A DNA stretch of 64,000 nt from Candidatus Poribacteria bacterium (GCA_965202725.1 OZ241845.1:794640-858639); one strand, 5' to 3'; numbered from the stretch's first letter, positions 3,607-62,932 are shown. The notes: generated by a model from the sequence alone, not told the origin. Made by a program: numbers and translations.

Positions 3607-3630
3607 AAACAATATTTGTGAACCAGCCTT

Positions 3631-3695
3631 CACAGCCTAACAGGAAACCATGCTACAATAGGATGCCCCCTGCTTGCGGGGGCGGGAGGGTAAGG
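3631..3695. repeat. composite dispersed repeat: A motif (reverse, CACAGCCTAACAGGAAACCATGCTACAA) followed by B motif (CCCCCTGCTTGCGGGGGCGGGAGGGTAAGG)
   Basis: Matches copies at 7877-7955, 50661-50814, 53283-53408, 57943-57969, 20806-20836 and 44771-44800. Confidence 0.7.
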
Positions 3696-7876: not shown

Positions 7877-7955
7877 TTTTGTAGCATCCCCCTTGCTTGC
7901 GGGGGCGGGGGGGTAATGTCAAACCTGCAGAGCCTAATAGGAAACCATGCTACAA
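7877..7955. repeat. composite repeat: A-fragment + B motif (CCCCCTTGCTTGCGGGGGCGGGGGGGTAATG) + A motif (reverse)
   Basis: B then A order, mirroring the A then B copy at 3631-3695 on the other side of the restriction-modification gene. Confidence 0.7.
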
Positions 7956-8022
7956 ATGCGGGGAGCAGAATGCATGTGTTTTTTCACATATCTCCGCCTC
8001 TTTTAGCACAGGGAGCAGATCA

Positions 8023-27940: not shown

Positions 27941-28125
27941 TAAGGATGGGGGGGCAAGCACACAACAGAGATCTGAAAACTGAGTGCCTTTGTTGATTTC
28001 CCTATTGCTGTTTTCTTGCTCATCGACTATACTGACAAGCGTTTGGACAATTTTAATGTGTAGCATAGGAGACTGTTAACCTACGCCTCCATCTCTATAG
28101 GACTAAATACCCGAAAAGGAGTAAT

Positions 28126-48000: not shown

Positions 48001-49870
48001 CGCTGTTTGTGGCAGTGTAGGTATACGTAGTTGCTGCCATTGCAGTTGTGGGGGTGCCACTCAGCATCCGGGTCGCTGTAGTAAACATGAGACCCGCAGG
48101 TAAGGCAGGGGTTAGACCGTAGGTGATACCCGTGCCAGTTGCCATCGGAAGTGTCAGAGCCGGCATTGCTACACCTACAGTCAACATCTGATTGGCAATG
48201 CTCGCATCAGTAGCAAACGTAGGTGCCACAGGGGCGACAGCGGCTACAGTGAGAGTGAAAGTCAGCTGGGCATTACCCCCGCTGTTTGTGGCAGTGTAGG
48301 TATACGTAGTTGCTGTCATTGCTGTTGTAGGGGTGCCACTCAGCAGCCGGGTCGCTGGCGTAAACGTCAGTCCCGCAGGTAAGGCAGGGGTTAGGCTGTA
48401 CGTGATACCCGTGCCAGTTGCCATCGGAAGTTCTATAGCCGGCATTGCTACACCTACAGTCAACATCTGATTGGCAATCACCGTACCAGCAGAAAACGTA
48501 GGTGCCACAGGGACAGGGGCTACAGTGATAGTGAACGTCAGCTGGGCACTGCCTCCGCTGTTGGTCGCAGTGTAGGTATAAGTAGTTGCTGTCGTCATTG
48601 CAGTTGTGGGGGTGCCACTCAGCACCCGGGTCGCTGGCGTAAACGCAAGACCCGCAGGTAAGGCAGGGGTTAGGCTGTAGGTGATACCCGCACCGCTCGC
48701 CACCGGAAGTGTCAGAGCCGGCATTGCCCTCCCTACAGTCAACATCTGATTGGCAATACTCGCATCACCAAACGTAGGCTGCGTCCGCCCCGGCATCGGC
48801 GTCCCAGACACAGCCGCAGAGGGCGTGCCTGCAGGCGTAGTGCCTGCGGCTGCTACACGGATACGCACGGTGATCGGAGTGCCAGCAGCGCCACGGATGA
48901 CCAACGGATAGACCGATACAGCCACCCAATTCACGCCGCCATCGGTGCTATACTCATACCCAGTCGCCGAACCGCCCGTCCAAGACACCGTTATCTTCCC
49001 TGGCCCAGGTTCCACAACAACGCCCGTCGGCATATCGCCGCTAGTGTCGCCACCAGTGTCGCCATTGCCATCGCCGTCATCGCCGCCGTTGCCATCGCCG
49101 TTAGTGTCGCCGTCCATGTCATCGTCAACAGTTGGAATTGGTGTAGGTGTCTGTGTGGGTGTCTGTAACGGCGGGCTCGAACCGTCCGCGTTGTTTATCC
49201 TTAGATAAAAAAAACGCATTACATCACCCTCGTACTCATAACTGCCGCCATCAACCGCGGTATAAGTAAAGTAAAAGTGGCCTGCTTCAGTAGGGGTGCC
49301 AGCAAGGGTCCGAGTCGATGCTGTGAATGTTAAGCCGGCGGGAAGGGCCCGAGTAGGGCTGCCGATGGCATTGTAAAGACTTACCGTCAGTGTATACGTC
49401 GTCGTATCGCCGTCCTCTTGCGTTGCCTCTGGCAAAACAAGACTGTACGCCTGCCCTACCCTCGCTGGACTGGGTGCCGGGATTCTACTCTCACTAAACA
49501 TAGGATCGGAATGTACAGTGAGATTAAACGTCAACGTAATATCGGTCTCACCCGGTGCTGAGGCAGTTACCGTATATGCTGTGGTTGGATAGCCTGCCCG
49601 GAAATGCCCCTGGATTCTAGGGTAATTCTGAACATTTGCAAGCCTCAAAGGAGCAGGTAAGGCGGGCGCTATCGAGAAAGTTATCCCGGCGGCACCCTCA
49701 GCGCGTGACAACGGATGGTCCGTGTTATCACCTTTAGCGAAGTCTAAATCAGGTTGTGTAGTAGGATTCCATGTAAGTGCAGCCTCCACGGCAGTTGGCA
49801 CCAGGAGCAAGGCAAATACTAACAGGACTACTAAACTTGCGAAAGAAAATGTTATTTTATTTGATAACAT
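45017..49870 (-). CDS. giant (1617 aa) secreted adhesin-like protein
   Basis: Signal peptide MLSNKITFSFASLVVLLVFALLLVPTAVEA. Acidic DG-rich tract. Five or more ~95-aa Ig-like 'putative Ig / dystroglycan-type' repeats (YSLTPALPAGLTFTPATRLLSGTPT). Three lamin-tail (LTD) domains (ITEIM..WIEVYN, INEIG..WVELRN, ISEIM..WIELYN). C-terminal beta-domain ends in AGKLTTTWGDLKTQD. The Ig repeats are also near-identical DNA repeats (~47.4-48.8 kb). Confidence 0.7.
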   Translation of the reverse strand: MLSNKITFSFASLVVLLVFALLLVPTAVEAALTWNPTTQPDLDFAKGDNTDHPLSRAEGAAGITFSIAPALPAPLRLANVQNYPRIQGHFRAGYPTTAYTVTASAPGETDITLTFNLTVHSDPMFSESRIPAPSPARVGQAYSLVLPEATQEDGDTTTYTLTVSLYNAIGSPTRALPAGLTFTASTRTLAGTPTEAGHFYFTYTAVDGGSYEYEGDVMRFFYLRINNADGSSPPLQTPTQTPTPIPTVDDDMDGDTNGDGNGGDDGDGNGDTGGDTSGDMPTGVVVEPGPGKITVSWTGGSATGYEYSTDGGVNWVAVSVYPLVIRGAAGTPITVRIRVAAAGTTPAGTPSAAVSGTPMPGRTQPTFGDASIANQMLTVGRAMPALTLPVASGAGITYSLTPALPAGLAFTPATRVLSGTPTTAMTTATTYTYTATNSGGSAQLTFTITVAPVPVAPTFSAGTVIANQMLTVGVAMPAIELPMATGTGITYSLTPALPAGLTFTPATRLLSGTPTTAMTATTYTYTATNSGGNAQLTFTLTVAAVAPVAPTFATDASIANQMLTVGVAMPALTLPMATGTGITYGLTPALPAGLMFTTATRMLSGTPTTAMAATTYTYTATNSGGNAQLTFTLTVNPVTSVPVLAVVPAKTYTVGMAVSETLPMATGTGVTYSLAPAAWNGLAFNATTRLLSGTPAAAMSATTFTYTATNSAGSDTKTFTITVAPVAPVAPTFAAGTVIANQILTVGVAMRAIELPMATGTGITYSLTPALPAGLAFTAGTRLLSGTPTGSAMAATTYTYTATNSGGNAQLMFTLTVTDIDNVIPSKGFGVLVHPGAMASDTGIASGVKTISVSNMVDLQDFFLNGGTIIVKGPAGAAVGDLKITEIMAAKDATLGGRSKYSQWIEVYNKTGSAIIFDGSRWMLDFTQGGVPEPAGVSSSVAGRVDLVSNMGNPGFWAIPSKGGRSEATTAANAVDLVSMYRKLKQFDEDNTGHADHAKDDGDPERSGTWVASGRPSRNLSGNRLGTPGTYPVAARPDPPVLSQEVLINEIGNSSSDANDWVELRNTTTGEMNLRKWELNIVMSVDGAAKETQLVSFPDNDNVKLAAGGILLISNSDPTASGNDLAAGVAINKAAADRVKRGVQSMYYIDSNLVLPNSGKYNLILRSANDKEGKSTHIVDHGGTYFAEKKDGSFDTEVWPLRLWAAGHGNVIDGADEDFRAGLVYKRNGKNTGIGEKHWAKVGFTGIGYDRTAANTDENGGTPGYANDALKEKVADLSDAEVAISEIMFSAGSGRRSLPQWIELYNSSLTQGVNLNGWQLEIQNARDENLDARQNATITLGAVTIAPNQTILIVSTSGSNSGRDHFPDTRTIDLWTSHRSELDMEARTDTVLSATGFYLKLTDKDKKVVDEVGNTDGNRRTNDAPEWALPMGINSDGHRASIIRRYEDDMAADGMMQSGWISAQNTGRSAEGYSETTYYGDRNDVGTPGHHGGGPLPVSLASFRPARDTATGEVVIRWSTESELNNAGFNILRSETKTGTFTVVNSKGIIPGHGTTAEKHVYSWTDASAKPNLVYYYQIEDVSLDGTRTTLRTTHLRGNVNAAGKLTTTWGDLKTQD

Positions 49871-50344
49871 GAATTAGATTCCTCCTAAAAGAAACTATTG
49901 TTTGGACAATGTAAATTCTTCTCTGCTGGCGGGGTTTTGTGGCGGATTCACCTACATGCGATGTGAATTCCCAACCCCGCTTAACCACGCCAGCGGCGAC
50001 TTCAGTGTTGGGTTTCGCTATCTGTATTACCCAGGAAACCGCCTTGAAAAATGGACGATGTGTGCATTCTGAAGATGGTTCTGGGCTTTCCCGCTCAACC
50101 CAACCTATTTTTAGTTTTGCTTTTACTGCGAGGTTCGGAAACCTTGCCAGCGACAACTGCGGACGCAAAGCGAACAGAACGGCAAGATAGAAACACACAG
50201 GTAGTGAAAAGCAAACCCCGAGCAAAAGTCGCTGATACGTTGTATTCGCGTATGTTTGCTTGGAAATAACGGGAGTAGACTTCCTTGGAGAGGGCGCGGA
50301 ATCAGAAAACAGCGGTTGTGTAAAGTTAACTGAGAGTTGAATCT

Positions 50345-50355
50345 GGGGGGGGGGG
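50345..50355. repeat. G11 homopolymer in the non-coding region upstream of the adhesin gene
   Basis: ctGGGGGGGGGGGtaac. Confidence 0.8.
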
Positions 50356-50516
50356 GTAACAACTGATAAGTTAATATCGCTGTTAGCGAAAGACACATAG
50401 AAGCGAAACCGCCACAAGGTATACGGGCAGACTCGCATCGCTCCACTTCTCTCTTCTTTTACTCCTACATTAACAAGCCAGTTAGCCATCGCTGTTCGCT
50501 GTCCTCAACGCGTTTC

Positions 50517-50566
50517 CCCTTGCTTGTGGGGGGGGGGCGGGGAGGTATTCCCCTAGGTAATGTCAA
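50517..50566. repeat. B-motif copy with expanded G-run (CCCCTTGCTTGTGGGGGGGGGGCGGGGAGG...GGTAATGTCAA)
   Basis: Matches 7888-7925 including the GTAATGTCAA tail. The G-run is G10 here versus G5/G7 elsewhere. Confidence 0.65.
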
Positions 50567-50660
50567 TTATACACCATCTGAACCATAAATGTCAAATTAT
50601 TTCTTCACGTTCACAGACATAAAATACCTTAAACACACCTAACGCGTCAAGTCTTTTTTC

Positions 50661-50814
50661 CATGCTATTCTAAAATAGGTAGGCTGTGCCGTTGTAGCAT
50701 GGTTTCGTGTTAGGCTGTGCCTTACCCTTACCCCCCTACCCCCCGCAAGCAGGCGGGATGCTATTCTTGTAGCATGGTTTCGTGTTAGGCTGTGCCTTAA
50801 GTTGTAGCAAGGTT
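50661..50814. repeat. A-motif cluster: degenerate A, A, B (reverse), A, partial A
   Basis: TTGTAGCATGGTTTCGTGTTAGGCTGTGCC at 50692-50721 and 50767-50796. Between them lies the reverse complement of the B motif. The cluster is immediately 3' of mod1. Confidence 0.75.
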
Positions 50815-50834
50815 CTTGACTGCATAGTTCGGCA

Positions 50835-52511
50835 TCACTCTGTAACAACCGTCTCCTCACCGAGCATATCAATAATCTTCACAGCAACCCGAGCATCAGG
50901 ACGCGGCAGCGATACCGTGTATTCTCCCTCAACAAAGTCAGCCTTTTTCTGTGGAACATCGCTTTCAACGATGTCGAAACGCTCGCCCGTATAATCGGTA
51001 TCGATTAGCACACAATCAACTTGTGCACGGAAGTCCTCAATGTGTTCGCCGAAGAGGGTGCGGTCTATGTCCAAACGCCCCAAGATAGTTGGACTCATAT
51101 AATCTTCAATAGTGATCGTAACGCTCTCTCCGTTTCTTTCAAAGCTAACATCTGCTTCGGCAGCCGCATAAGTAGTCACACCATCACGTTGAATATCGCG
51201 CACGATGAATTTGTTTATCCCGCGTCGCTGGTTTTCTTTAACAAGTTCTTCCTGAATTCCGATCTCGCTCCCATTGCATAGCAGCGTGATGTTGCGTGCC
51301 TCATCTGGGCGATTTTGGAGTTCGTCTTTAATAAGTTGAACATCCAATCGATTGAACGGTCTTGTAAGGTCAATAATTTTGACGAGTGTCCCGTCCAGTG
51401 TGCCGTCAAAAAACGCTTCTCGCCTGTCCGTTTGCACGCCATATTTTTTGATAACAATATTCCTTCGTTCTAAATGTGTGCTGGCATCGTAGTTATTGAC
51501 ACGATAGTGGGCAATGCCGCGCCGCATCTCTGGTAACTTCTGTAGTCTTTTGAGTGTCGTCTGGATGGCCCCTTTGTTGATATCCGCAGCAATCCAGCGC
51601 CTACCGAGTTCCTCCGCTATGACTGCAGTGGTTCCGCTACCAATAAAACAATCAAGAACGATAGAATCCTTGTTGCTCGAGGCTTTAAGAATAGGTTCTA
51701 TTAAATTTTTAGGTTTTTGAGTAGGAAAGTCGGAACGTTCCCGATCCATAGTGTTAAGCGAAGGTTGAATAATCACATCATCAGGAGTTTTACCTGTTGG
51801 CATATCCTTTCCTGCTTGTCCTCCCCTGTTGTATCGCCACTCGGTCATTCCGCTTTCAAAAGGCACTAGAATTTCATCTCGATTGAAAATGTATTTGTCC
51901 GGCGATTTGGTATACCAAAAAATAGTCTCATGTGCATGGGCTAATCTCTTTTTTCCACGAGAGGCATTTTTGTAGTACCAAATAATTTCATTCTGGAAGA
52001 GGTCTTTGTCAAATATTTCGTCCATGAGTACTTTCAGATAGTGACTTTTTTCATGGTTGCAATGCAGGTAAATTGAACCTTTATCTGATAACAATTCATA
52101 CATCAAAATGAGTCGTTCATACATAAACTGCAAATAGTTGTCATTTGCCCAAATATCAGTGTATTGTGTTTGCTCGACAAAAGAGGGACCTTCGCCTGCT
52201 AATTCTTTCTCTTCACCGCGCAGTTTTACCTTTCGCACATAGTCTGCTCCACTGTCAAACGGTGGATCGATATAAATGAGGTCTATTTTACCACGAAACC
52301 CTTGCACAAGCAATGTGGAGAGAATCTCTTTGTTGTCTCCGTGAAAAAGGAGATTGGGCCCCTCCTTGAATCTGTCGTAAGTCGGTTCCTTTTCTGGGTT
52401 TTCTATGTTGTAGGTTTCGACTAATTGTGCAGGATAGTTGCTGATTGTGTCAATCGGGCGTTTGCCGACCCAATGCAACATCGGTCTGCCTTTAACGGGT
52501 TTGATTTTCAT
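50835..52511 (-). CDS. Type III restriction-modification methyltransferase Mod, paralogue 1 (beta-class N6A/N4C MTase) with ~230-aa conserved C-terminal extension
   Basis: Motif IV IDLIYIDPPF near the N-terminus, a variable middle target-recognition region, motif X PTQKP, motif I VLDCFIGSGTTAV, then a long C-terminal domain shared by all copies. Start placed at MKIKPVKG (ATG 52511). The listed ORF starts 15 nt upstream. Confidence 0.6.
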   Translation of the reverse strand: MKIKPVKGRPMLHWVGKRPIDTISNYPAQLVETYNIENPEKEPTYDRFKEGPNLLFHGDNKEILSTLLVQGFRGKIDLIYIDPPFDSGADYVRKVKLRGEEKELAGEGPSFVEQTQYTDIWANDNYLQFMYERLILMYELLSDKGSIYLHCNHEKSHYLKVLMDEIFDKDLFQNEIIWYYKNASRGKKRLAHAHETIFWYTKSPDKYIFNRDEILVPFESGMTEWRYNRGGQAGKDMPTGKTPDDVIIQPSLNTMDRERSDFPTQKPKNLIEPILKASSNKDSIVLDCFIGSGTTAVIAEELGRRWIAADINKGAIQTTLKRLQKLPEMRRGIAHYRVNNYDASTHLERRNIVIKKYGVQTDRREAFFDGTLDGTLVKIIDLTRPFNRLDVQLIKDELQNRPDEARNITLLCNGSEIGIQEELVKENQRRGINKFIVRDIQRDGVTTYAAAEADVSFERNGESVTITIEDYMSPTILGRLDIDRTLFGEHIEDFRAQVDCVLIDTDYTGERFDIVESDVPQKKADFVEGEYTVSLPRPDARVAVKIIDMLGEETVVTE

Positions 52512-52956
52512 TGTGTTCCGTCCCATGCCTCAAAATGTGTATAAATTTTTCTGGGGGCACGATCTGTATTTGCTCATAACTACCTAAATCCAATAGGTCC
52601 CGGTCTCGACTTACGATATAATCGGCTGATACTGCCACAGCGCAGGAGATAATCATGTCGTCTTTAGGGTCGCGTTCTATGACACGAATTTCTGGCAATT
52701 GTGCAACTATAATGCTAATATCTTTCAGGTAATCGATAAAAATTTCTGCTTTTTCTGAGGGATATGTATAACGATTCCGTATGTGTGGTTTCTCTAAAAG
52801 TACATGGCGAATTTCCTGTAAAATTTCTGCCGACGTGTAAAGATTGACATTTTCCTGACACTGAGACACCAAGGCTGCTGTCAATCCCTGGGTAAGAAAA
52901 GCACTTACGGCGACAACGCTATCAAGGACAACGCGTAGTTTTCTTCTGTTTGTCAT
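52492..52956 (-). CDS. PIN-domain toxin (VapC-like)
   Basis: RVVLDSVVAVSA (N-terminal Asp) ... CAVAVSADYIVSRDRD acidic residues typical of PIN. Start placed at MTNRRK (ATG 52956). Its 3' end overlaps the mod1 start by ~20 nt. Confidence 0.5.
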   Translation of the reverse strand: MTNRRKLRVVLDSVVAVSAFLTQGLTAALVSQCQENVNLYTSAEILQEIRHVLLEKPHIRNRYTYPSEKAEIFIDYLKDISIIVAQLPEIRVIERDPKDDMIISCAVAVSADYIVSRDRDLLDLGSYEQIQIVPPEKFIHILRHGTEHNENQTR

Positions 52957-53224
52957 ATTCTTCCTGTCGACACTCAGCAACAGCGCGCTCAACATCTTGA
53001 TAGACTTCTTCTTCACTGATCCCTCTATTTTGTTCATGGACGCTTTTCATTAATTGCAAAAGTTTCGCCCAATTTTCAGGGGTCGTTGATTTCTTAGGCA
53101 TGATCACTACACAATCACCCTCAATCCGTGCATCCACGATATCGCCCTTCTTGAGCCCTAAACTTTCTCGGATCTGTTTCGGAATAGTTATCTGTCCATG
53201 TTCGAGAATCTTGGCAATTGCCAC
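52922..53224 (-). CDS. AbrB/MazE/SpoVT-family antitoxin
   Basis: MAIAKILEHGQITIPKQIRESLGLKKGDIVDARIEGDCVVIMPK is a swapped-hairpin AbrB signature. GTG start. Overlaps the PIN gene by ~35 nt. Confidence 0.5.
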   Translation of the reverse strand: MAIAKILEHGQITIPKQIRESLGLKKGDIVDARIEGDCVVIMPKKSTTPENWAKLLQLMKSVHEQNRGISEEEVYQDVERAVAECRQEEYDKQKKTTRCP

Positions 53225-53282
53225 ATTTTTTCTCCTTTTTGTGTAGTTGTCCTAATATGCATTGTGCCTTTCGCAACGTTAA

Positions 53283-53408
53283 GTTGTAGCATGGTTTCCT
53301 GTTAGGCTGTGTCTCTTCCGTAGCATGGTTTCCTTTAGGCTGTGCCTCCTTCATAGCATAGCCTCCGCGCTTGCGGGGGCGTAGCATAGTTTCCGATTAG
53401 GCTGTGCC
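53283..53408. repeat. A-motif cluster (3 copies) with B-like fragment CCTCCGCGCTTGCGGGGGCG
   Basis: GTTGTAGCATGGTTTCCTGTTAGGCTGTG, GTAGCATGGTTTCCTTTAGGCTGTGCC, GTAGCATAGTTTCCGATTAGGCTGTGCC. Lies between the toxin-antitoxin pair and mod2. Confidence 0.75.
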
Positions 53409-53526
53409 GTTCCGTTCCCCGTAATAAACAAGCGGACATCCGCGCTTAATTCCGCACGTACCTTTCAGTGTGTCTTCTCGTAACAGAGAAACCACCTCAT
53501 CAGGTTCTTGACTGAAGAGTTCGGCA

Positions 53527-55266
53527 TCACTCGGTAACAACCGTCTCCTCACCAAGCATATCAATAATCTTCACAGCAACGCCAGCATCAGAACGCGGCA
53601 GTGATACCGTGTATTTTCCCTCAACAAAGTCAGTCTTTTTCTGTGGAACATCGCTTTCAACGATATTGAAATGCTCACCCGTATAATCGGTATCGATTAG
53701 CACACAATCAACCTGGGCTCGGAAGTCCTCAATGTGTTCGCCGAAGAGGGTGCGGTCAATATCCATGCGTGCCAAGATAGTTGGACTCATATAATCTGCT
53801 ATAGTGATCGTAACGCTCTCTCCGTTTCTTTCAAAGCTAACATCTGCTTCGGCAGCCGCATAAGTAGTCACACCATCACGTTGAATATCGCGCACGATGA
53901 ATTTGTTTATCCCGCGTCGCTGGTTTTCTTTAATAAGTTCTTCCTGAATTTCGCCCTCACTTCCATTGCATAACACCGTGATGTTGCGTGCCTCATCTGG
54001 GCGATTTTGGAGTTCGTCCTTAATGACTTGAATATCCAGTCGGGTGAACGGTCTCGTCAAGTCAGCGATTTTGACGAGGGTTCCGTCTAAGTGTCCATCA
54101 AAGAAAGCAGCTTTCCGGTCAGTTTCCACACCGTATTTAGAAACGATAATCTCTTTAAGTTTGTGCTCAGTTTGGAAGTCGTAGTTATTGACGCGGTAGT
54201 GGGCAATCCCACGTGGTTCGTCAATACTGGACTGTATCCTTTTCATTGTAGTCTGTATCGCGCCTCTGTTGAGGTCTGCAGCGATCCAACGTCTACCAAG
54301 TTTTTCCGCTACAGCAGCAGTGGTGCCACTCCCCACAAAGCAATCTAAAACGATATCTCCCTCATTAGAAGATGCTGTGATAATACGTTCTAATAGAGCT
54401 TCAGGTTTTTGGGTTGGATATCCTATACGTTCATCATCGTCACCTTGTATAGTAAGCTCCTTTTCTATCCATAGATTTCCAATAGCGACTCCAGGATTAG
54501 TATCAAGGTAGACTCTCTTAACAGTGCCTTGCAGATATTTGCGACCCCGTGGTATTGCATAACGTCGACCATTTTCGTCAGTGTGTCTATATTCAGATTT
54601 GATAGTTTGTTCTGATAATGGACGGAATATAGCATTGAAAGTATATTTATCGGTGAGCGAATAAAACAGTAAAGTGTCGTTCTCAGTTGTAAATTTTAGT
54701 TTCGCTGTATTTTTATGTCCCCCATATTTTCTCCACACGATCTCATTTCTAAAGTTAATTTCTCCAAAAATTTCGTCCAATACTAACCTCAAATAACTGT
54801 TCATCCGCCAGTCACAATGCACAAAGATAGCCCCATTATCTGATAACAATTCCCGCATCAGAGTCAACCGTTCGTACATAAACTGAAGATAAGTATCATT
54901 TGCCCAAATATCACTGTATTGTATCTGTTCAGCAATAGTGTGTCCTTCTGCCTCCAGTTTCTCCCTTCTACCGCGCAATGCCACTTCCCGTACATAATCC
55001 GCACCGCTTGCAAAGGGTGGATCGATGTAGATAAGGTCTATCTTCCCGCGGAATCCCTGCACGAGAAGTGTAGAGAGGATTTCCTTGTTATCGCCGTGAA
55101 AAAGGAGGTTAGGACCGTCCTTAAATCTGTCGTAAGTTGGTTCTTTTTCTGGGTTTTCGGTGTTGTAGGTTTCGACTAGTTGTGCAGGATAGTTGCTGAT
55201 TGTGTCAATCGGGCGTTTGCCGACCCAGTGGAGCATGGGTCTGCCTTTAACGGGGGTGATTTTCAT
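53527..55266 (-). CDS. Type III restriction-modification methyltransferase Mod, paralogue 2 (different target-recognition region)
   Basis: About 200 N-terminal and ~230 C-terminal residues are near-identical to mod1. The central ~150 aa are unrelated. DPPF and FVGSGTTA motifs are intact. Confidence 0.6.
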   Translation of the reverse strand: MKITPVKGRPMLHWVGKRPIDTISNYPAQLVETYNTENPEKEPTYDRFKDGPNLLFHGDNKEILSTLLVQGFRGKIDLIYIDPPFASGADYVREVALRGRREKLEAEGHTIAEQIQYSDIWANDTYLQFMYERLTLMRELLSDNGAIFVHCDWRMNSYLRLVLDEIFGEINFRNEIVWRKYGGHKNTAKLKFTTENDTLLFYSLTDKYTFNAIFRPLSEQTIKSEYRHTDENGRRYAIPRGRKYLQGTVKRVYLDTNPGVAIGNLWIEKELTIQGDDDERIGYPTQKPEALLERIITASSNEGDIVLDCFVGSGTTAAVAEKLGRRWIAADLNRGAIQTTMKRIQSSIDEPRGIAHYRVNNYDFQTEHKLKEIIVSKYGVETDRKAAFFDGHLDGTLVKIADLTRPFTRLDIQVIKDELQNRPDEARNITVLCNGSEGEIQEELIKENQRRGINKFIVRDIQRDGVTTYAAAEADVSFERNGESVTITIADYMSPTILARMDIDRTLFGEHIEDFRAQVDCVLIDTDYTGEHFNIVESDVPQKKTDFVEGKYTVSLPRSDAGVAVKIIDMLGEETVVTE

Positions 55267-55425
55267 TGTATGTTCTTCCTATGTTATAGAATCTTGATCG
55301 ACAATACTATATAACGTAAGTTTGATAAATACTTGTACGAAATCAATGTGTGCGTTTTCGGTATCGCGGGGGATCTCAAGGTTACCTTCAAGATAGGTAC
55401 TATGATACTCCTCAATCCTACTTAA

Positions 55426-56019
55426 TCAACAAGCTTTCTTGAAAAACAAAGCAACCAGAATGAAGAATAACAATGTTGGAACTGCAACCACAAACATACG
55501 AGACCAGTCATTCCAAATTTGGTTGAAATGCATGAATAATTCTCCGAAGTTAGAAACTGGAATGAGTCTAGGGGCTGATTTCTTGAATAATTGTTTTTCA
55601 GTCATTTTTCGCCTTTCACCACCAAAATTGACTGTAACCTCTGCATCGCTGGGACAGAAAGTGTTTTTAGGGTATTTAGAAAGATGGTGCAAAATACATT
55701 CTGCTTTTTTAAGGTAAAAGTTTCTTCGCCATGCGTCATTTGCCATTGCTACAGCAACTCCAATTTGCCACATAACGTAAATAATGTGTATACCTAGCGC
55801 AAATAAGGCTAGTCCAATACTTTGCCATCGTTCAATAGACAGTGATGTTGCTTTTATAATTTGGTAAAAAGCTAAAATGAGTAGCGTCATATACGAGATA
55901 AAAATCCTAAATTCAACGGTTCTCCTGTCATCATGCCGCTTTGCTCCAAATTCAGCAATGTCCAGCATACCCTGCAAGTTCTCTCTATCCTTGTCGAAGT
56001 TATCTTTATTGTTCATCAC
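55426..56019 (-). CDS. hypothetical 4-TM membrane protein, markedly AT-rich, embedded in the restriction-modification locus
   Basis: 197 aa, hydrophobic helices (FRIFISYMTLLILAFYQII, LALFALGIHIIYVMWQIGVAV, VVAVPTLLFFILVALFF). No recognisable family. Confidence 0.4.
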   Translation of the reverse strand: MMNNKDNFDKDRENLQGMLDIAEFGAKRHDDRRTVEFRIFISYMTLLILAFYQIIKATSLSIERWQSIGLALFALGIHIIYVMWQIGVAVAMANDAWRRNFYLKKAECILHHLSKYPKNTFCPSDAEVTVNFGGERRKMTEKQLFKKSAPRLIPVSNFGELFMHFNQIWNDWSRMFVVAVPTLLFFILVALFFKKAC

Positions 56020-56088
56020 TTACCTCTCAGTGTGTCTTCTCGTAACAGAGAAACCACCTCATCAGGTTCTTGACTGAAGAGTTCGGCA

Positions 56089-57790
56089 TCACTCGGTAAC
56101 AACCGTCTCCTCACCAAGCATATCAATAATCTTCACAGCAACGCCAGCATCAGAACGCGGCAGTGATACCGTGTATTTTCCCTCAACAAAGTCAGTCTTT
56201 TTCTGTGGAACATCGCTTTCAACGATATTGAAATGCTCACCCGTATAATCGGTATCGATTAGCACACAATCAACCTGGGCTCGGAAGTCCTCAATGTGTT
56301 CGCCGAAGAGGGTGCGGTCTATGTCCAAACGCCCTAAGATAGTGGGACTCATATAATCTGCTATAGTGATCGTAACGCTCTCTCCGTTTCTTTCAAAGCT
56401 AACATCTGCTTCAGCAGCCGCATAAGTGGTCACACCATCACGTTGAATATCGCGCACGATGAATTTGTTTATCCCGCGTCGCTAGTTTTCTTTAACAAGT
56501 TCTTCCTGAATTCCGATCTCGCTCCCATTGCATAACACCGTGATGTTGCGTGCCTCATCTGGGCGATTTTGGAGTTCGTCTTTAATAAGTTGAACATCCA
56601 ATCGGGTGAACGGTCTTGTAAGGTCAATGATTTTGACGAGTGTCCCGTCCAGTGTGCCGTCAAAAAACGCCTCGCGCCTATTCGTTTGCACGCCATATTT
56701 TTTGATAACAATATCCCTTCGTTCTAAGTGCGTACTGGCATCGTAGTTATTGACACGATAGTGGGCAATGCCGCGCCGCATCTCTGGTAACTTCTGTAGT
56801 CTTTTGAGTGTCGTCTGGATGGCCCCTTTGTTGATATCCGCAGCAATCCAGCGCCTACCGAGTTCCTCCGCTATGACTGCAGTGGTTCCGCTACCAATAA
56901 AACAATCAAGGACAATAGAATTTTTATCGCTTGATGCTTTGATGATACGTTCTACAAGCTTTTCAGGTTTCTGGGTAGGAAATTGTTGCCGCTCTTTCGC
57001 ACTTCTACTGATAATGCCGATTTCAAATAGGTCTGATGGCAATTGCCCCTTTGGGTGTGCGTACCACTTTTTACCTGAAGAATCTAATGTGTAATAACCC
57101 TCTCCGTCCTGTTTGTAACCTTTTAGTTGTTCTGCTTTATAAGGTTCCCGCATTTCATCTAAGTGAAAAATCCAATCTTCGGCACTTTTAGCGTACCAAA
57201 AGATCGTATCATGTTTCTGAGAGAACTTCTTTCTTACTGTACTTGCCCAATTATACTTCCAGACGATTTCGTTGACGAAATTACCCTCTCCGAATACTTC
57301 GTCTAATAGTAAACGTAGATGATGATTTTTGTGTGAATCGCAATGAAGATAGAGACTTCCCCTATCACTTGAGTTCGCGCATCAAAATGAGCCGTTCAAA
57401 CATGAATTGAAGGTAGTTATCATTTGCCCAGATGTCGGTATATTGCGTCTGCTCAATAAGGGAATGGCCTTCCGCCTCTAAGTTTTTCTGTCCTCCACGT
57501 AATGCTACCTTTCGCACATAGTCTGCTCCACTGTCAAACGGTGGATCGATATAAATGAGGTCTATTTTACCACGAAACCCTTGCACAAGCAATGTGGAGA
57601 GAATCTCTTTGTTGTCTCCGTGAAAAAGGAGATTGGGCCCCTCCTTGAATCTGTCGTAAGTCGGTTCCTTTTCTGGGTTTTCTATGTTGTAGGTTTCGAC
57701 TAATTGTGCAGGATAGTTGCTGATTGTGTCAATCGGGCGTTTGCCGACCCAATGCAACATCGGTCTGCCTTTAACTGGCTTGATTTTCAT
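56089..57790 (-). pseudogene. Type III Mod paralogue 3, decayed
   Basis: N-terminal fragment 57365-57790, target-recognition region + motif I fragment 56482-57153, C-terminal fragment 56089-57457. Broken by a frameshift near 57360 and a CAG to TAG nonsense at 56483-56485 (gtcgcTAGtttt versus gtcgcTGGtttt in the intact copies). Carries a third distinct target-recognition region. Confidence 0.55.
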
Positions 57791-57942
57791 TGTGTGTTCT
57801 TCCTATGCTATTTATGATAGATCTTAGCATGAATTGGACAAGCTGTGAATCAACGTTAGCATGCGCGTGTCGCATTCTGCGGGTGTGGTTAGAAACCGTA
57901 CCCACCGTGCTTGGGCGAAACTCTATGCTACAGGTGATACTT

Positions 57943-57969
57943 GCACAGGCTAACGGTTTCCTATGCTAC
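57943..57969. repeat. A-motif copy (reverse: CACAGGCTAACGGTTTCCTATGCTACA) plus partial copy, between res and the mod array
   Basis: Overlaps the res stop codon region. Confidence 0.6.
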
Positions 57970-60620
57970 AGGGCCTCCCCTTTAATATCGGTCCCATAAA
58001 TCCATTCGCGGATAGTTCGCGTTTCATCGTCTAAATTCTCTTGGAGAAAAGCGTCGCGTGTATAAATGACCTTATATTCAAAGTGAACATCTGGCTGTAA
58101 ATTTTTCAGACGTTCCACTGCCTTCTCTTTTGCTACGACGGTAGGGTCCCCGCGTTCACTTTCAGACTTAATCTCAACAATGTAGAATTCTCCAGTGTTC
58201 TTGACGATAACAAAATCAGGAAAATAGCGGTGATAATTGTTATCAGCCCCCTTGTATTCAAAGTGAAAATCGGTTTTCTTGGTATTCGTTAAACTTCCAG
58301 TAAACAGCAACATTTTGATATCTGCAACGGATTGATTCAACGTTGCCAACACCTTCTTAAAGAAGTTCTGTTCGGGGCTACTATCAAAATTGTAAGGCGT
58401 ATAGTGATAACTCACATCGTGGTTGTCATCTAAGTCACATTCACTGAGCAACAGGTCAATTTTGCTCTTGCGCACACGTACCTTGTGAACATAACAGTTC
58501 TCAACCGCATCCTTTTCAAAAAGAGGATTGCCATCGTCATCGTGGGTACGGATAAGGGCAAGGTGTTTCGTAATCGTTTCCTCAATCACTTCGTAATTTT
58601 GCTGCTGTTCTTCCACCTGTTTACATAGCGAATAGTAGTGTTTGGCTGGAACCTGCCCCTCTGGATAGAGGCTTTTGAGACTTTTAAGTGTTTCCATCGC
58701 AGAGAGGTGATAGTTTGTAGCAAGTCGTCTCGCCAGCGTGTAACAATCGGTTGTTTGATTAGCAATTTCAACCTCGTCCTGCGTTCCTAACGTTGTTAGC
58801 GGTGAAGCACCGCGATGCGTAAAATCAGGGGTTAGAATGCTGCGAAAAGCAGGCGGAGTCTTCTCAACGTCTGCTGTAGGGAGATGGAGCTGAATCTTTT
58901 TAGGTGCTGTTTCCAATGGCACAACCCGGCGCACCCATTGCATAATTTTTAATTTTGGCAAATCAGGCTTGCGAATGCGCAGTGCGATATCTTGTGTTTC
59001 TGCGTCTTGTGCGCGGAGCTCACCGAGCGTAGTCCCAAAGTTTGCCTGTAGCTCTCTATCCAAAATCGCACTGTTTTTCCTATCCAAAAATATTTTTGCA
59101 GTGTGGGTGTTGCCTTTCACTTGACGGAGACATCGGGTTGAGGCTTGCAAAATAAAGTTGCTACTGGTTGTTTGTTCCTTAATAAGGGCGCAAGCGAATA
59201 GGCTTGGACAATTCCATCCTTCTGTCCCTTTACCAATAAGTAGAATGACACGTTTCTGACTGTCAGGATTGTTGAGGTGATTGAATTCATCAATTTCCTG
59301 CGGACTTGATTTTTGGGTATTGACAAGTATCTGAGTGGTACTCTCTCTCCTTTGGGTAAGTGCGTTTTGAATATGCTGATGGGAGGTATCCAAATGTTCT
59401 TGTGTCTTGAAGTAAAAGGCGATTTTCGCTTTCGCACCATTCGGTAAGGATACGTTGCCGTAGTTGTCAAAAAAATCGTTGATAACGTTACGCATCACGT
59501 CTGCATCAGGAATCGTTCCGATAGGGTATTGAACAATGCCGTTGTGAAGACTTTTGAGAATGTTGTCCTTAATTCCTTCCCCGAGACTGTACCATGCCAC
59601 AACCTCTCTGAGCATCTGCCGTTTGGCGTAAGGCGTGCCAGTGGTATTGATTACAGCTACGAGAGACGTTTTCTCATGTATGTAGTTAACCGTCTCGCGC
59701 ACCCGTTTAAGCTCTGCGTCTATCTTGTTGCCGTAGGTATGATGTGCCTCATCTGAGAAGACCCCTAACCGGGGCAGGCTTGTAATTTTTTGGAGGCGGA
59801 GATTGGCTTCTAATTCCGCTTGTTCCTTCTTCTCTGCGAATTCTAATTCTGTCTGATTACGCCGTTTTCTCACATGTGCTCGAAGCGCGATTTTCTCAGT
59901 GTTTGTGACAACGACGTTGTAACTACTATTGGTTTGAACTTGAATGTCTTTCGCACCTGCTTGTGGATAGGTAATCTTGAGGTTGGCCAAAAAATCGCGG
60001 TGTAGACTGGCAGGTAGAACCTGATCAAATGGTATATCGCTAATCTCGCGTAGACTTTCGATAATGGTTGTACCGGGGGCGAAGACGAGGGCGTTCTTCA
60101 TGAAGTCGCCCTCAGGATAACGGAGCGCCATCGCGAATTCGGTTGCGATAATGGTGCCGATAAGCACAGTCTTGCCGGTGCCCATTGCCAGGGCGAAGAT
60201 ATAACTCGGATACGGGAGTGTGACAGCCTCGTAGACAGGGTCAATTCGCTTCTGTTTAACGAATTCCGGGGTGTTTTCTACCAAGTTAAGGATCGCGTCA
60301 ACATCTCTAATCAAGATCAGTTCTTGGGGAGAGATGGGGATACCGAAGGCTTCGCAGAAATCACGTATATCGTCAGTGTCGTAGTAATGCCTATAGAGTT
60401 TGACAATATGCGGGGTTTTTAGCACTAATCGCAGGTACCAATAGAGTTCCAGTGATTGGAATTGCGGGTGGCGGAGGTATTTGAGGGAGATTTCCTCCGG
60501 TGGCTCGCCTTCACATTGATAGCGCAGAATCTCACCGATAAGGGGATACTCTGGACAGGGGTATCCTGTATTGCGCCAGTTGAGTGTGTCGTCGCGCAGT
60601 TTTTCAAAAAGGTGTTGCAT
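57966..60620 (-). CDS. Type III restriction enzyme Res subunit (SF2 helicase-like ATPase + C-terminal PD-ExK nuclease)
   Basis: Walker A ALAMGTGKTVLIG. DEAH box VFSDEAHHTYG. C-terminal D-x-EIK (DFVIVKNTGEFYIVEIKSE). 884 aa. Confidence 0.65.
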   Translation of the reverse strand: MQHLFEKLRDDTLNWRNTGYPCPEYPLIGEILRYQCEGEPPEEISLKYLRHPQFQSLELYWYLRLVLKTPHIVKLYRHYYDTDDIRDFCEAFGIPISPQELILIRDVDAILNLVENTPEFVKQKRIDPVYEAVTLPYPSYIFALAMGTGKTVLIGTIIATEFAMALRYPEGDFMKNALVFAPGTTIIESLREISDIPFDQVLPASLHRDFLANLKITYPQAGAKDIQVQTNSSYNVVVTNTEKIALRAHVRKRRNQTELEFAEKKEQAELEANLRLQKITSLPRLGVFSDEAHHTYGNKIDAELKRVRETVNYIHEKTSLVAVINTTGTPYAKRQMLREVVAWYSLGEGIKDNILKSLHNGIVQYPIGTIPDADVMRNVINDFFDNYGNVSLPNGAKAKIAFYFKTQEHLDTSHQHIQNALTQRRESTTQILVNTQKSSPQEIDEFNHLNNPDSQKRVILLIGKGTEGWNCPSLFACALIKEQTTSSNFILQASTRCLRQVKGNTHTAKIFLDRKNSAILDRELQANFGTTLGELRAQDAETQDIALRIRKPDLPKLKIMQWVRRVVPLETAPKKIQLHLPTADVEKTPPAFRSILTPDFTHRGASPLTTLGTQDEVEIANQTTDCYTLARRLATNYHLSAMETLKSLKSLYPEGQVPAKHYYSLCKQVEEQQQNYEVIEETITKHLALIRTHDDDGNPLFEKDAVENCYVHKVRVRKSKIDLLLSECDLDDNHDVSYHYTPYNFDSSPEQNFFKKVLATLNQSVADIKMLLFTGSLTNTKKTDFHFEYKGADNNYHRYFPDFVIVKNTGEFYIVEIKSESERGDPTVVAKEKAVERLKNLQPDVHFEYKVIYTRDAFLQENLDDETRTIREWIYGTDIKGEAL

Positions 60621-60659
60621 TAAGCATTTTTCCTGATTGGGTGTACAACTTCAGTGGCT

Positions 60660-60755
60660 ATTACGATTATACCATGCTTGCGTAAAATGACGGAGTTTGA
60701 GTCGGCTATTGATGATAGTAATCCGATTACGATTATACCATGCTTGCGTAAAATG
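60660..60755. promoter_or_regulatory. two 30-bp direct repeats (ATTACGATTATACCATGCTTGCGTAAAATG) in the res upstream region, candidate operator/promoter elements
   Basis: Copies at 60660-60689 and 60726-60755, 40-135 bp upstream of the res start codon. Confidence 0.3.
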
Positions 60756-60841
60756 GGCAAACCGAATCAATAGGTGACCCCAACTTCAAACGATTAGCCG
60801 CTCATATTTTCACGTTGTTTTGTGGGGTTCTCCGAAAAGCT

Positions 60842-61432
60842 TTAATCGGGAAATGTGACACGCGCGTATATTTCCTGCAAAGGCAATTCGCACGGGGTAG
60901 AAGAGAGGTGCAGGATTTCGTCAAGTCTTTGGAAATCAGTGAGAACCCACTGTTTTTCTTCACGACGGTAATGCTCAACACAAATCTTGTCTTGGGCAAC
61001 AAGGATGTATTCCTGTAATGATGTGAGTTGGCGATAGTGAGCAAATTTTTCGCCTCTGTCGTACGCTTCTGTTGATGGAGAAAGCACCTCTACAACGACA
61101 ATCGGGTTCAGGAGCATGTCAAAAATATCGCCTTCAAAGCGCGGTTCTTCACAGACAACACCGACATCGGGATAAAAATAGGATCGTGCTGTGGGTATGC
61201 TGATACGCATATCGTTGGCGAAAACGACACAATCAGTGCCTTGCAAGCTGGTATGCAATCTCACAGAAATGTTCATTGTTATCAGGTTGTGTGCGAAACT
61301 TGCTCCGGGCATAGGAATAACTTCTCCATTCATATACTCGTGTCTAACTATTTCTGAATCGGGAATAAATTTGCGTTCAAAAGCAATATATTCTTCGGGT
61401 GTGAGGTGGGTTTGTGCTGCAGGGGTTGCCAT
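60842..61432 (-). CDS. Uma2-family (DUF820) PD-(D/E)xK putative endonuclease
   Basis: EEYIAFERK...EYMNGEV N-terminus and ...PDVGVV...IVVVEVLSPSTEAYDRGEK...EY match the Uma2 pattern. Confidence 0.6.
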   Translation of the reverse strand: MATPAAQTHLTPEEYIAFERKFIPDSEIVRHEYMNGEVIPMPGASFAHNLITMNISVRLHTSLQGTDCVVFANDMRISIPTARSYFYPDVGVVCEEPRFEGDIFDMLLNPIVVVEVLSPSTEAYDRGEKFAHYRQLTSLQEYILVAQDKICVEHYRREEKQWVLTDFQRLDEILHLSSTPCELPLQEIYARVTFPD

Positions 61433-61606
61433 GATTCTCCTCCAGAAATTCTTAGTGATTCTATTATAGCACAGTTGTTCACAATTTTTCTTGCAAAAAT
61501 TGTGAACGCCAGTTATAATACCGCAATAAAGTACCGAATCACATATCAGATTTTAATATAGGTGCTAATAACAACTTGCATGATTTCTATATGGAGGAGA
61601 AAAAAC

Positions 61607-62932
61607 ATGAAAAAGGTTCGCATAAGTCTGGGCTTAGTGTTGATATTTGCACTTGCGTTCGTGAGTATCTCGAAAGCGGATAACCATCAATCGCAATCCT
61701 TAACCATTGTCTGGGCAGAATGGGATCCCGCTAATTATCTGCAGGAACTCTCGAAAGACTTTACCGCTGAAACGGGTATTGCTGTTGATGTTGTCCAGAT
61801 TCCGTGGGCGAATTTCCAAGATAAAGTTTTCACGGCTTTTGTCGGGAAAAGCGATCTTTATGACATCGTTATTGGAGACAGTCAATGGCTCGGTCGGAAC
61901 TCCCAAGGCGGAAACTATATCAATCTCACCGATTGGATTAACGAAAATATTGACGTGGATTCTATCTATGGCCCCGCGATGACAGCGTTTGCCGAATATC
62001 CAAAAGGTAGCGGCACGTACTGGGCACTACCTGCCGAAGTCGATGCCGCTGGCTACGTCTATCGCAAAGACCTATTTGAAGATCCAAAAGAAATGGTGGC
62101 GTTCCAAGAGAAGTATGGCTATGCACTTGCCCCCCCGACAACATACGACCAACTTCGCGATATTGCCGAATTCTTTACGCGTCCGGATCAAGACCTCTAC
62201 GGTATCGCAACTTGGTATAGCAAGGAATACGACGGTATTACCATGGGATTCCAACAGGTGATGTGGAGTTTTGGTGGTACCTACGGCAATGCTGAAAATT
62301 ATAAGGTTGATGGATATATTAACACGGAAGATACTGCGAAAGCACTTGAATTCTACACCGACCTGCTCCAGTTTGCACCCCCTGATGCACCGAATTACTA
62401 TTGGTCAGAGACGCTTTCTGCTTACACCGCAGGAAAAGTCGCTATGGCAATGAATTATTTCGCTTTCTTCCCGGGGGTCATAAATGCTGATGTGAATCCC
62501 GTTTCCCACGACAAGAGCGGTTTCTTTTTAGCACCCGCGGGCCCGAAGGGACACTATATCAGCATCGGTGGGCAAGGGATGTCCATCTCTGCCTATTCCA
62601 AAAACAAGGCCCTTGCCAAGCAGTACATGAAATGGTTTATGCAGAAACCTGTCCAGGAGAAGTGGGCAGTACTCGGCGGTTTCACCCCACACAAAGAGGT
62701 GTTGCAGTCCGATACATTTAAAACAGCAACCCCCTTTAACGAAGCTTTCGCTGCGAGTTTCCCCTACCTTCGCGATTTCTGGGCGGTGCCGGAATATGCA
62801 GAACTTTTGGCAGTCTGCCAGACGAACTGGAGCGCAGCTATCTCCAAAATCAAGTCCGCGAAAGAGGCACTTGACACCATCGCAAGGAAGCATGAGGAAA
62901 TCTTTGAGGACGCAGGGTATTACGACGAGTAA
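61607..62932 (+). CDS. ABC transporter substrate-binding protein (family-1 sugar/solute-binding protein)
   Basis: Signal peptide MKKVRISLGLVLIFALAFVSISKA, ~440 aa, family-1 extracellular solute-binding pattern. GGAGGAG RBS. Confidence 0.7.
   Translation: MKKVRISLGLVLIFALAFVSISKADNHQSQSLTIVWAEWDPANYLQELSKDFTAETGIAVDVVQIPWANFQDKVFTAFVGKSDLYDIVIGDSQWLGRNSQGGNYINLTDWINENIDVDSIYGPAMTAFAEYPKGSGTYWALPAEVDAAGYVYRKDLFEDPKEMVAFQEKYGYALAPPTTYDQLRDIAEFFTRPDQDLYGIATWYSKEYDGITMGFQQVMWSFGGTYGNAENYKVDGYINTEDTAKALEFYTDLLQFAPPDAPNYYWSETLSAYTAGKVAMAMNYFAFFPGVINADVNPVSHDKSGFFLAPAGPKGHYISIGGQGMSISAYSKNKALAKQYMKWFMQKPVQEKWAVLGGFTPHKEVLQSDTFKTATPFNEAFAASFPYLRDFWAVPEYAELLAVCQTNWSAAISKIKSAKEALDTIARKHEEIFEDAGYYDE

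Follow-up and report, generated by a model that had tools for sequence, protein, structure and literature searches.

Type III restriction-modification loci in which a single res gene stands beside tandem copies of mod are known from the mycoplasmas: Mbo45ORF167P of Mycoplasma bovis PG45 comprises three tandem mod genes and one res, the same has been noted for M. pulmonis, and in M. agalactiae 5632 the tandem mods M1/M2.Mag5632ORF1570P have res downstream, arrangements that the authors attribute to duplication of mod followed by the acquisition of new recognition regions (PMC5909438; PMC9465063; bioRxiv 10.64898/2026.05.01.722158). We have analysed a locus of related layout at positions 50835-61432 of a 64,000-nucleotide stretch of DNA from a Candidatus Poribacteria bacterium (GCA_965202725.1 OZ241845.1:794640-858639), the whole of which is referred to here as the window. 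An initial annotation did not recognise its architecture as one already described; in view of the mycoplasma loci it is a variant layout rather than an unknown kind of system, and, since tandem mod alleles with one res have already been published, it overturns nothing. We consider it probable, albeit with appreciable doubt, that this is a two-specificity Type III-type restriction-modification locus belonging to a divergent, res-first clade found mainly in sponge-associated bacteria, and that the scaffolds of its mod genes are kept uniform by gene conversion.

All substantial open reading frames (ORFs) in this island are on the minus strand, Pfam and NCBIfam searches back the gene assignments, and the order in the direction of transcription is that given by the initial annotation, namely Uma2, res, mod3 (broken), the membrane gene, mod2, AbrB/MazE, PIN and mod1:

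60842-61432, minus strand: Uma2-family (PD-ExK-like) gene, 196 amino acids (aa); PF05685 with an expect value (E) of 1.3e-34; PADLOC candidate family PDC-S03
57966-60620, minus strand: res, 884 aa, superfamily 2 (SF2) helicase-nuclease with helicase motifs and a C-terminal PD-(D/E)xK
56089-57790, minus strand: mod3, Type III mod pseudogene in ORF pieces 57365-57790, 56482-57153 and 56089-56457
55426-56019, minus strand: small membrane-protein gene, 197 aa, three predicted membrane-spanning segments
53527-55266, minus strand: mod2, intact Type III Mod, 579 aa; PF01555 at 9e-51 over the full length; variable block ~54410-54810
52922-53224, minus strand: AbrB/MazE-type antitoxin gene, 100 aa; PF04014 at 2.5e-11; TIGR01439
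52492-53037, minus strand: PIN-domain toxin gene; PF13470 at 5.4e-15; TIGR00305 at 6e-19
50835-52511, minus strand: mod1, intact Type III Mod, 558 aa from the ATG at 52511 (ORF 50835-52526); PF01555 at 5e-51; variable block ~51718-52055

The G+C content of the island is 0.38-0.49, lowest in the membrane gene, as against 0.48-0.61 in a neighbouring gene encoding a 1617-aa protein.

Comparison with characterized proteins places the Mod family clearly among Type III Mods. The PF01555 match spans the full length of both mod1 and mod2, with the motifs in the order IV (DPPF), recognition region, X and I (FxGSGTT); mod2 reads DPPF, recognition region, FVGSGTT. When solved structures are ranked against a profile of 36 family members, EcoP15I Mod comes first (9e-32; profile positions 12-318 aligned to chain positions 58-456, the N-terminal L-x-W-x-GK included), a second Type III Mod (6k0w) comes second and Mbo45V sixth; mod2 matches EcoP15I Mod at 3.6e-21, and the PADLOC MTase_III (methyltransferase) models match Mod at up to 7e-67. 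The presence of DPPF instead of SPPF predicts N6-adenine methylation. Both intact genes are under purifying selection, the ratio of nonsynonymous to synonymous substitution (Ka/Ks) being 0.10-0.12 for mod2 and 0.06 for mod1. Homology to beta-class N6-adenine-type Mods is accompanied by a Res in which the SF2 motor precedes a C-terminal PD-(D/E)xK, as expected of a Type III system; the prototype order of mod followed by res, which is customary and not strictly defining, is not seen, as res comes first.

The three mod copies are direct repeats, detected in a search of the island as families of 300 nt present three times at 81-99% identity, well in excess of what chance would produce, and a three-way alignment of the DNA reveals conserved ends around unrelated centres. 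In the 5' block mod1 and mod3 are identical for 270 bp and are 80-98% identical to mod2; this is followed by ~200 bp at 60-80% identity, ~400 bp of near-random identity, and a 3' block at 86-100% identity that extends for ~550 bp between mod2 and the others and ~850 bp between mod1 and mod3. The near-identical ends described initially therefore stand, although the 5' block is ~270 bp and not ~600 bp long and the 3' blocks lie to either side of the ~700 bp proposed. At the protein level the three copies are 96-100% identical in the N-terminal part and 86-95% identical over the C-terminal ~230 aa, while their recognition regions are only 14-28% identical. All three share the leader CATAGGAAGAACAYACAATG, and the start of mod1 homologous to the others is the ATG at 52511 and not position 52526. 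As had been noted, mod3 is decayed, carrying exactly two lesions: near 57367 the frame shifts within a Leu codon, and at 56482-56484 Gln is replaced by an in-frame stop. Both lie outside the recognition region, the frame of which is open (variable block ~56972-57336), and DPPF and FxGxG are retained; we propose that mod3 is a recently inactivated third allele.

The conserved parts of mod3 are a mosaic of the other two copies. Taking as informative those sites at which exactly two of the three copies agree (a tally rather than a formal recombination test), mod3 agrees with mod1 over an unbroken series of 44 sites within the 5' block, and again in further runs, ~110 sites in total, across the motif-I and central-3' region; its partner then switches from mod1 to mod2 between 56320 and 56281, the last 31 consecutive informative sites side with mod2, and the mod2-like stretch extends ~65 bp beyond the stop codon. 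Exact tracts are shared between mod3 and mod1 over 270 bp (57775-57506 and 52496-52227) and 176 bp (56910-56735 and 51656-51481), and between mod3 and mod2 over 293 bp (56319-56027 and 53757-53465). Because synonymous divergence from the nearest orthologues is 0.5-1.4, the long difference-free tracts and the partner switch indicate recent gene conversion within the array, in agreement with the earlier proposal that the direct repeats recombine. For every recognition region of the window, an allele 87-100% identical to it is present elsewhere, borne by a less similar scaffold. That of mod1 is 94% identical to its counterpart in one related locus (L008; related loci are numbered with the prefix L), that of mod2 is 100% and 98% identical to those of L009 and L001 respectively, and that of mod3 is 92% identical to that of L035, while the scaffolds that bear these regions in the other genomes are ~70-75% identical to those of the window at the C-terminus.

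A mosaic of this kind, with its exact tracts and change of partner, would be expected if conversion or deletion between the direct repeats altered the expressed recognition regions at a useful frequency, with mod3 acting as a silent, restorable donor cassette. The two lesions of mod3 fall outside its recognition region, in blocks for which the other copies could supply a repair template, recognition regions have been exchanged between scaffolds across genomes, and one relative (L084) has lost its mods entirely. However, the concerted evolution usual among tandem paralogues would leave conversion tracts just as readily, no recombinase domain was found among the island or flanking genes (49.8-63 kb), the interval 49800-62000 contains no pair of inverted repeats of at least 40 nt, and as all of the mod copies are direct, crossovers between them delete and do not invert. 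Furthermore, mod1 and mod2 are each complete, with a separate leader and start, unlike the promoterless partial cassettes of known switching systems, and all three copies are intact in the related locus L041; such switching is therefore unlikely. The initial annotation had envisaged a phasevarion-like, specificity-shuffling system, and like a phasevarion the locus does have several allelic recognition regions set between conserved 5' and 3' ends. There is, however, no in-frame repeat tract, neither Tandem Repeats Finder nor a homopolymer scan detecting any simple-sequence repeat in the three mods of the window, nor the combination of inverted repeats and an adjacent site-specific recombinase that characterizes an inversion-type shufflon. 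Programmed specificity switching is thus unsupported by the sequence, and since mod1 and mod2 each have a start and leader of their own, it is probable that both are expressed together.

The single Res carries GTGKT, DEAH and TGTP motifs, a motif VI of the form Q-x3-R-x2-R (LQASTRCLRQ) and a C-terminal PD...ExK, and its Pfam ResIII score exceeds the family cut-off; these matches, with those of the Mods, bear out the original view of a Type III-type locus with one Res (DEAH helicase plus PD-ExK) and three mod paralogues. Helicase motifs I, II (DEAH), III and VI are kept across 44 diverse homologues of 23-67% identity, as are E750, D802, E816 and K818. A structure predicted by AlphaFold from these homologues, with a predicted local distance difference test (pLDDT) score of 86, has the motor domains first and the nuclease fold at the C-terminus: an N-terminal helical domain (residues 1-135), RecA1 (139-345), RecA2 (360-535), a beta-rich domain (540-745) and the PD-(D/E)xK domain containing the four conserved acidic and basic residues. 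An earlier model from a shallow alignment, with a pLDDT of 50, was discarded. A Foldseek comparison of the retained model with solved structures gave generic SF2 matches only, with template modelling (TM) scores of ~0.26-0.30 that do not discriminate. In Type I HsdR the nuclease is N-terminal to the motor and the partners are HsdM and HsdS; since neither that domain order nor those partners are present here, we read Res as a divergent Type III-type protein and not as a Type I subunit. The domain order of Res is that of Type III enzymes, but its similarity to the Res proteins of EcoP1I and EcoP15I is weak. It evolves under purifying selection (Ka/Ks 0.10-0.13).

Homologues of Res are numerous. 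A search of a database clustered at 90% identity gave 3275 with E of 1e-5 or less among 8000 candidates scored, the few named ones being Candidatus Poribacteria, and a library clustered at 50% identity contains 1098 representatives at E of 0.001 or less. From a scan of species-representative genomes, in which 519 relatives were found, 80 were kept (metagenome-assembled genomes, L003-L082); most are Poribacteria and the remainder come from several other phyla, some with the sponge-symbiont names Spongiihabitans, Poriferihabitaceae and Porisulfidus, and up to four Res-Mod loci occur in a single genome. A phage origin of Res was set aside, there being just 2 relatives among 2.9 million viral contigs.

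Mapping Res and three segments of Mod onto all of the loci identified 76 with a mod gene, the majority from genomes of sponge symbionts; all but one (75/76) have the order res then mod. The res-first arrangement remarked upon initially is therefore real but is the norm for the family and not peculiar to this locus. The gap between res and mod is shorter than 150 bp in 24 of the 76 loci and 1 kb or longer in 41. Multi-mod arrays occur in five other loci, with three intact tandem copies in L041, two intact copies in L055, from a gammaproteobacterium, and further arrays in L023, L027 and L028; alignment of the copies in L041, L055 and L023 shows the same conserved-variable-conserved layout, with recognition regions 14-24% identical. 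Across the family, identity to the window of the Mod N- and C-terminal parts follows that of Res (Spearman rho 0.78 and 0.84, respectively), whereas that of the recognition region does not (rho 0.14, not significant). The recognition regions of 70 Mods fall into 35 types, and types are common to different phyla, suggesting that the Res-Mod family spreads horizontally within sponge microbiomes. The loci L001 and L003 have the same genes upstream as the window (a solute-binding protein gene, Uma2 and res) but a single mod with a mod2-type region.

These comparisons bear on whether the tandem array could be an assembly artefact in which strain variants of a single-mod locus were concatenated. The window derives from a metagenome-assembled genome and the locus is hypervariable between strains, circumstances in which such errors might be expected; look-ups with the exact sequences of the window Res and membrane protein turned up no further assembly of the strain. 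The segments between the copies are nevertheless unique and contain different complete genes (the membrane protein in one, AbrB-PIN in the other) with clean junctions, arrays of the same layout are present in independent assemblies from different phyla (L041, L023 and L055), and the collapse of strains does not yield a pseudogene with two lesions. We regard an artefact as highly improbable.

Runs of 8-13 G or C residues are located inside mod in five of the related loci (at 13027 and 14835 in L027, 12983 and 14004 in L028, 14431 in L080, 13036 in L030 and 15003 in L021). Both copies of an array often have the run at the same position, with lengths that differ between the copies in L027, and the mod reading frame breaks at the run in L027, L028 and L080. 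Of 21 such runs in 1.72 Mb of loci, seven are inside mod, which accounts for ~9% of the sequence; they are candidates either for phase-variation tracts or for sequencing errors in homopolymers.

The signals and repeats of the island are as follows:

60732-60760, minus strand: promoter-like site TTGCCC-17-TATAAT with a TG extension, ~110 bp 5' of the res start, from a consensus scan alone
57923-57969, minus strand: ~27-nt repeat (GTAGCATRG-type, dispersed), two copies from the res stop codon onward
53286-53420, plus strand: ~27-nt repeat, three copies in the intergenic block after mod2 (53286-53448)
53448-53429, minus strand: terminator-like hairpin 3' of mod2, from a promoter/terminator scan
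50694-50796, plus strand: ~27-nt repeat, two copies downstream of mod1, from a repeat search

A search of 49-62 kb with Rfam gave no match. The positions of the signals hint at two or more transcription units, one consisting of res, mod3, the membrane gene and mod2, and the other of AbrB, PIN and mod1. The dispersed ~27-nt repeat, GTAGCATRG..TTAGGCTGTGC, has 10 core matches in the window where 0.58 are expected; seven copies occupy intergenic junctions of the island, those following mod1 and mod2 being on the plus strand and those that begin at the res stop on the minus strand, and the others are at 3629-3656, 7945-7953 and 28060-28068. As it is absent from all 84 related loci searched, the repeat is specific to the lineage and not a feature of the family. 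Inversion via the oppositely oriented copies that flank mod3-mod2 was considered and set aside, the copies being short, diverged and also present elsewhere in the window. Copies of the repeat also flank, on both sides, a second gene of restriction-modification type in the window (4248-7346, minus strand), which encodes a 1032-aa protein with Type ISP coupler, N6-methylase and Type ISP C-terminal specificity domains, and without a recognisable helicase or nuclease part.

Downstream of mod1, a non-coding gap of ~1 kb (49870-50835) separates it from the gene for the 1617-aa protein, a secreted He_PIG/Lamin-tail repeat protein (45017-49870, minus strand). The gap contains runs of 12 G (50345-50356) and 10 G (50528-50537) residues and a perfect TTGACA-18-TATAAT (50595-50566), and it could be a slipped-strand, phase-variable leader of the surface protein.

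How the parts of the locus would work together can be modelled on EcoP15I and Mbo45V, from which the assembly of Mod with Res, the Mod2Res1 stoichiometry and the location of recognition in Mod are taken. Type III enzymes by definition cleave in an ATP-dependent manner, ~25-27 bp from one of two unmethylated asymmetric sites in inverse orientation. Each intact Mod, from mod1 and mod2, would form a dimer that methylates adenine N6 within a short asymmetric motif of its own, as its DPPF motif IV predicts, and each dimer would recruit the single Res through the common scaffold, such that the cell would methylate and restrict two specificities simultaneously. Gene conversion among the direct repeats would keep the mod scaffolds uniform, with recognition regions drawn from a pool of alleles of related symbionts.

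Several observations weigh against this two-specificity scheme. Res has no significant sequence match to solved Type III Res proteins, whether searched as a single sequence or as a profile of 21 or 44 sequences, and its alignment by hhalign with EcoP1I Res reaches at best 64% probability, in motifs V-VI only; no PADLOC model recognises Res, and the membrane protein and toxin-antitoxin pair are likewise unrecognised. The mod copy closest to res is the dead one, mod3. The terminator-like hairpin and 300 bp of repeats stand between mod2 and AbrB-PIN-mod1, and the three mods are consequently not obviously in one operon with res. In L084 (5473-9395), moreover, a Res that is 91% identical and has the same upstream genes as the window (solute-binding protein gene, Uma2, res) is followed by no mod or remnant, from which it appears that Res can persist without a partner.

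The pseudogene next to res and the orphan Res of L084 would also be explained if only the dead proximal mod had partnered Res, with restriction now effectively off and mod2 and mod1 remaining as solitary methylases, epigenetic or protective in role, brought in as cargo-borne add-ons. Consistent with this, mod1 is apparently driven from the toxin-antitoxin unit, with which its frame overlaps, behind the terminator-like site, and remote relatives of the membrane protein are partnered by methylases with no res in the vicinity. Against it, Res is intact and constrained (Ka/Ks ~0.11), and all of the copies after res are intact in L041 and L055. The mod1 and mod2 scaffolds are, in addition, 86-100% identical to that of mod3, in parts that co-vary with Res across the family, and a common interface with Res is therefore the simpler expectation. 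We think it improbable that the two methylases act alone, and retain the interpretation that both intact Mods would use the one Res.

Full-length copies of Uma2 were detected by tblastn 5' of res in nine other fetched loci, with fragments in three more; all of the loci bearing it are titled Poribacteria or encode a Poribacteria-type Res, and none is titled with another phylum. On this distribution Uma2 is found in synteny with res in several Poribacteria but does not belong to the conserved components of the system. The AbrB and PIN reading frames overlap, with the antitoxin gene directly 5' of the toxin gene as in Type II toxin-antitoxin modules, and the likely start of PIN is Met28, at 52956. 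Over its last 12 codons the PIN frame passes through the mod leader into the opening codons of mod1, and its stop falls inside mod1 codons 5-6; the AbrB frame of L002, a close homologue located directly 5' of mod, terminates in the same manner. As both frames end in the start of a mod, the cargo seems to abut a fixed point just upstream of it. PIN homologues are present in the res-mod gap of L006 and L080, and the segment from AbrB through PIN to the mod1 5' end forms one BLAST match to L006. Similarly, window positions 56951-55452, comprising the mod3 3' end and the membrane gene, are a single match to L075; the array thus resembles a patchwork of modules, which single-mod relatives contain separately.

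Genes of this sort recur at the same positions elsewhere. The res-mod intervals of relatives contain a HigA-like antidote in 16 loci, the 8xMP membrane family in nine, and a ParE-like toxin; other cargo includes the same AbrB (L001-L003 and L013), the same PIN (L006 and L080), TIR-TPR and ThsB-TIR/Mu-F proteins, DUF1828/DUF6978 pairs, an SDH-type protease and a DUF6932 nucleotidyltransferase, and in L023 the cargo sits between the two mods, as in the window. A link between cargo and recognition type was looked for and dismissed, as one recognition region can be found behind different cargo in different loci. The earlier suggestion that the toxin-antitoxin pair and membrane protein are add-ons is in accord with this recurrence, and by analogy with such loci AbrB-PIN and the membrane protein are probably accessory cargo with a role in addiction or back-up defence.

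The membrane protein was described initially as AT-rich with four transmembrane segments; the gene is AT-rich (G+C content 0.38-0.39), but a hydropathy scan gives three segments, not four. The protein has no Pfam match at E<0.01. Its topology (N-terminal helix, two membrane segments, a soluble stretch and a C-terminal membrane segment) resembles that of 8xMP; assignment to 8xMP (PF24838) was rejected on evidence that is too weak (E=0.013; score 15.8 bits, the cut-off being 30), and hhalign gives a probability of 6% against the nine 8xMP cargo proteins of the related loci. Its family, which is unannotated, has at least 87 members of ~200 aa. The gene adjoins that of a PF01555 adenine methylase both in the window and in each of five further distinct contexts that were examined: in three Poribacteria contexts (L075, 16318-16905; L085, 8001-8591; and L086 and L087, both 8001-8591 and sharing one gene layout) it is ~75 bp 3' of mod in a res-mod locus, and in two distant relatives (L088, 7001-7723; L090, 7001-7702) it is 23 bp 5' of the methylase gene with no res nearby. 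The membrane protein and the adenine methylase may therefore constitute a conserved functional pair.

A broader and more doubtful proposal is that such loci are modular platforms, in which the res 3' end and the mod 5' and 3' blocks act as homology arms for swapping recognition regions and cargo between strains, dead mods serve as silent reservoirs, and cargo such as toxin-antitoxin, TIR or membrane proteins is wired as a guard that fires upon inhibition or loss of the enzyme, as PrrC does for EcoprrI. The more modest two-specificity reading has consequences of its own. If both Mods use one Res, a single nuclease gene would provide two restriction specificities, and appending mod copies would be a cheap way of adding specificities and broadening defence in the virus-rich environment of the sponge. 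The parts most worth following up are the family-wide cargo pattern and the pairing of the membrane protein with methylases. A survey of the pattern in which res comes first, the res-mod interval is filled with cargo in more than half of the loci and recognition alleles are common to sponge-symbiont phyla would carry the theme of accessory genes within restriction loci over from Type I to Type III systems, and would draw attention to an unannotated family of membrane proteins that accompanies adenine methylases.

Among characterized systems, the prototypes EcoP1I and EcoP15I share with the window a beta-class N6-adenine Mod with N-terminal L-x-W-x-GK, DPPF/Y, a central recognition region and FxGxG, a Res with an SF2 motor followed by a C-terminal PD-(D/E)xK, and separate, adjacent genes on the same strand. 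They differ in that the gene order is reversed, the window has several mods, the similarity of Res is confined to the helicase motifs, and the conserved C-terminal ~230 aa of the window Mod have no counterpart in EcoP15I Mod detectable by sequence. The modA genes of Haemophilus and Neisseria and the mod genes of Helicobacter pylori, with their 'domain movement', reportedly also combine conserved flanks with a hypervariable centre and exchange recognition regions between scaffolds by homologous recombination; their alleles are said to be alternatives at one locus or to occupy dispersed loci, whereas those of the window are in tandem behind a single res.

The presence of cargo recalls prrC, a toxic, abortive-infection-type gene between the subunit genes of the ATP-dependent restriction system of the Type IC locus ecoprrI (PMC12707154). 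Toxin-antitoxin, TIR and membrane-protein genes likewise occupy the res-mod interval in 41 of the 76 family loci, although PrrC is functionally coupled to its Type I enzyme, while the cargo here is diverse, with no single dedicated partner, and its host system is Type III.

The mycoplasma loci remain the nearest in layout, with a single res beside two or three tandem mods that have conserved 5' and 3' ends and differing central recognition regions, and Mbo45V Mod is among the best solved matches of the window Mod family. In the mycoplasmas, however, the mod or mods precede res, with mod1 overlapping it, whereas the window has res first; each mycoplasma mod has a (GA)n tract for on/off phase variation, which the window mods lack; the published descriptions mention no genes between the copies, whereas the window interleaves a membrane gene and a toxin-antitoxin pair (PMC5909438; PMC9465063; bioRxiv 10.64898/2026.05.01.722158); and the window Res belongs to a different, divergent clade. 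Judged from its sequence, then, the poribacterial locus is a variation on an arrangement already described, distinguished by its leading res, its divergent Res clade, mods free of repeat tracts and the accessory genes interleaved among them.

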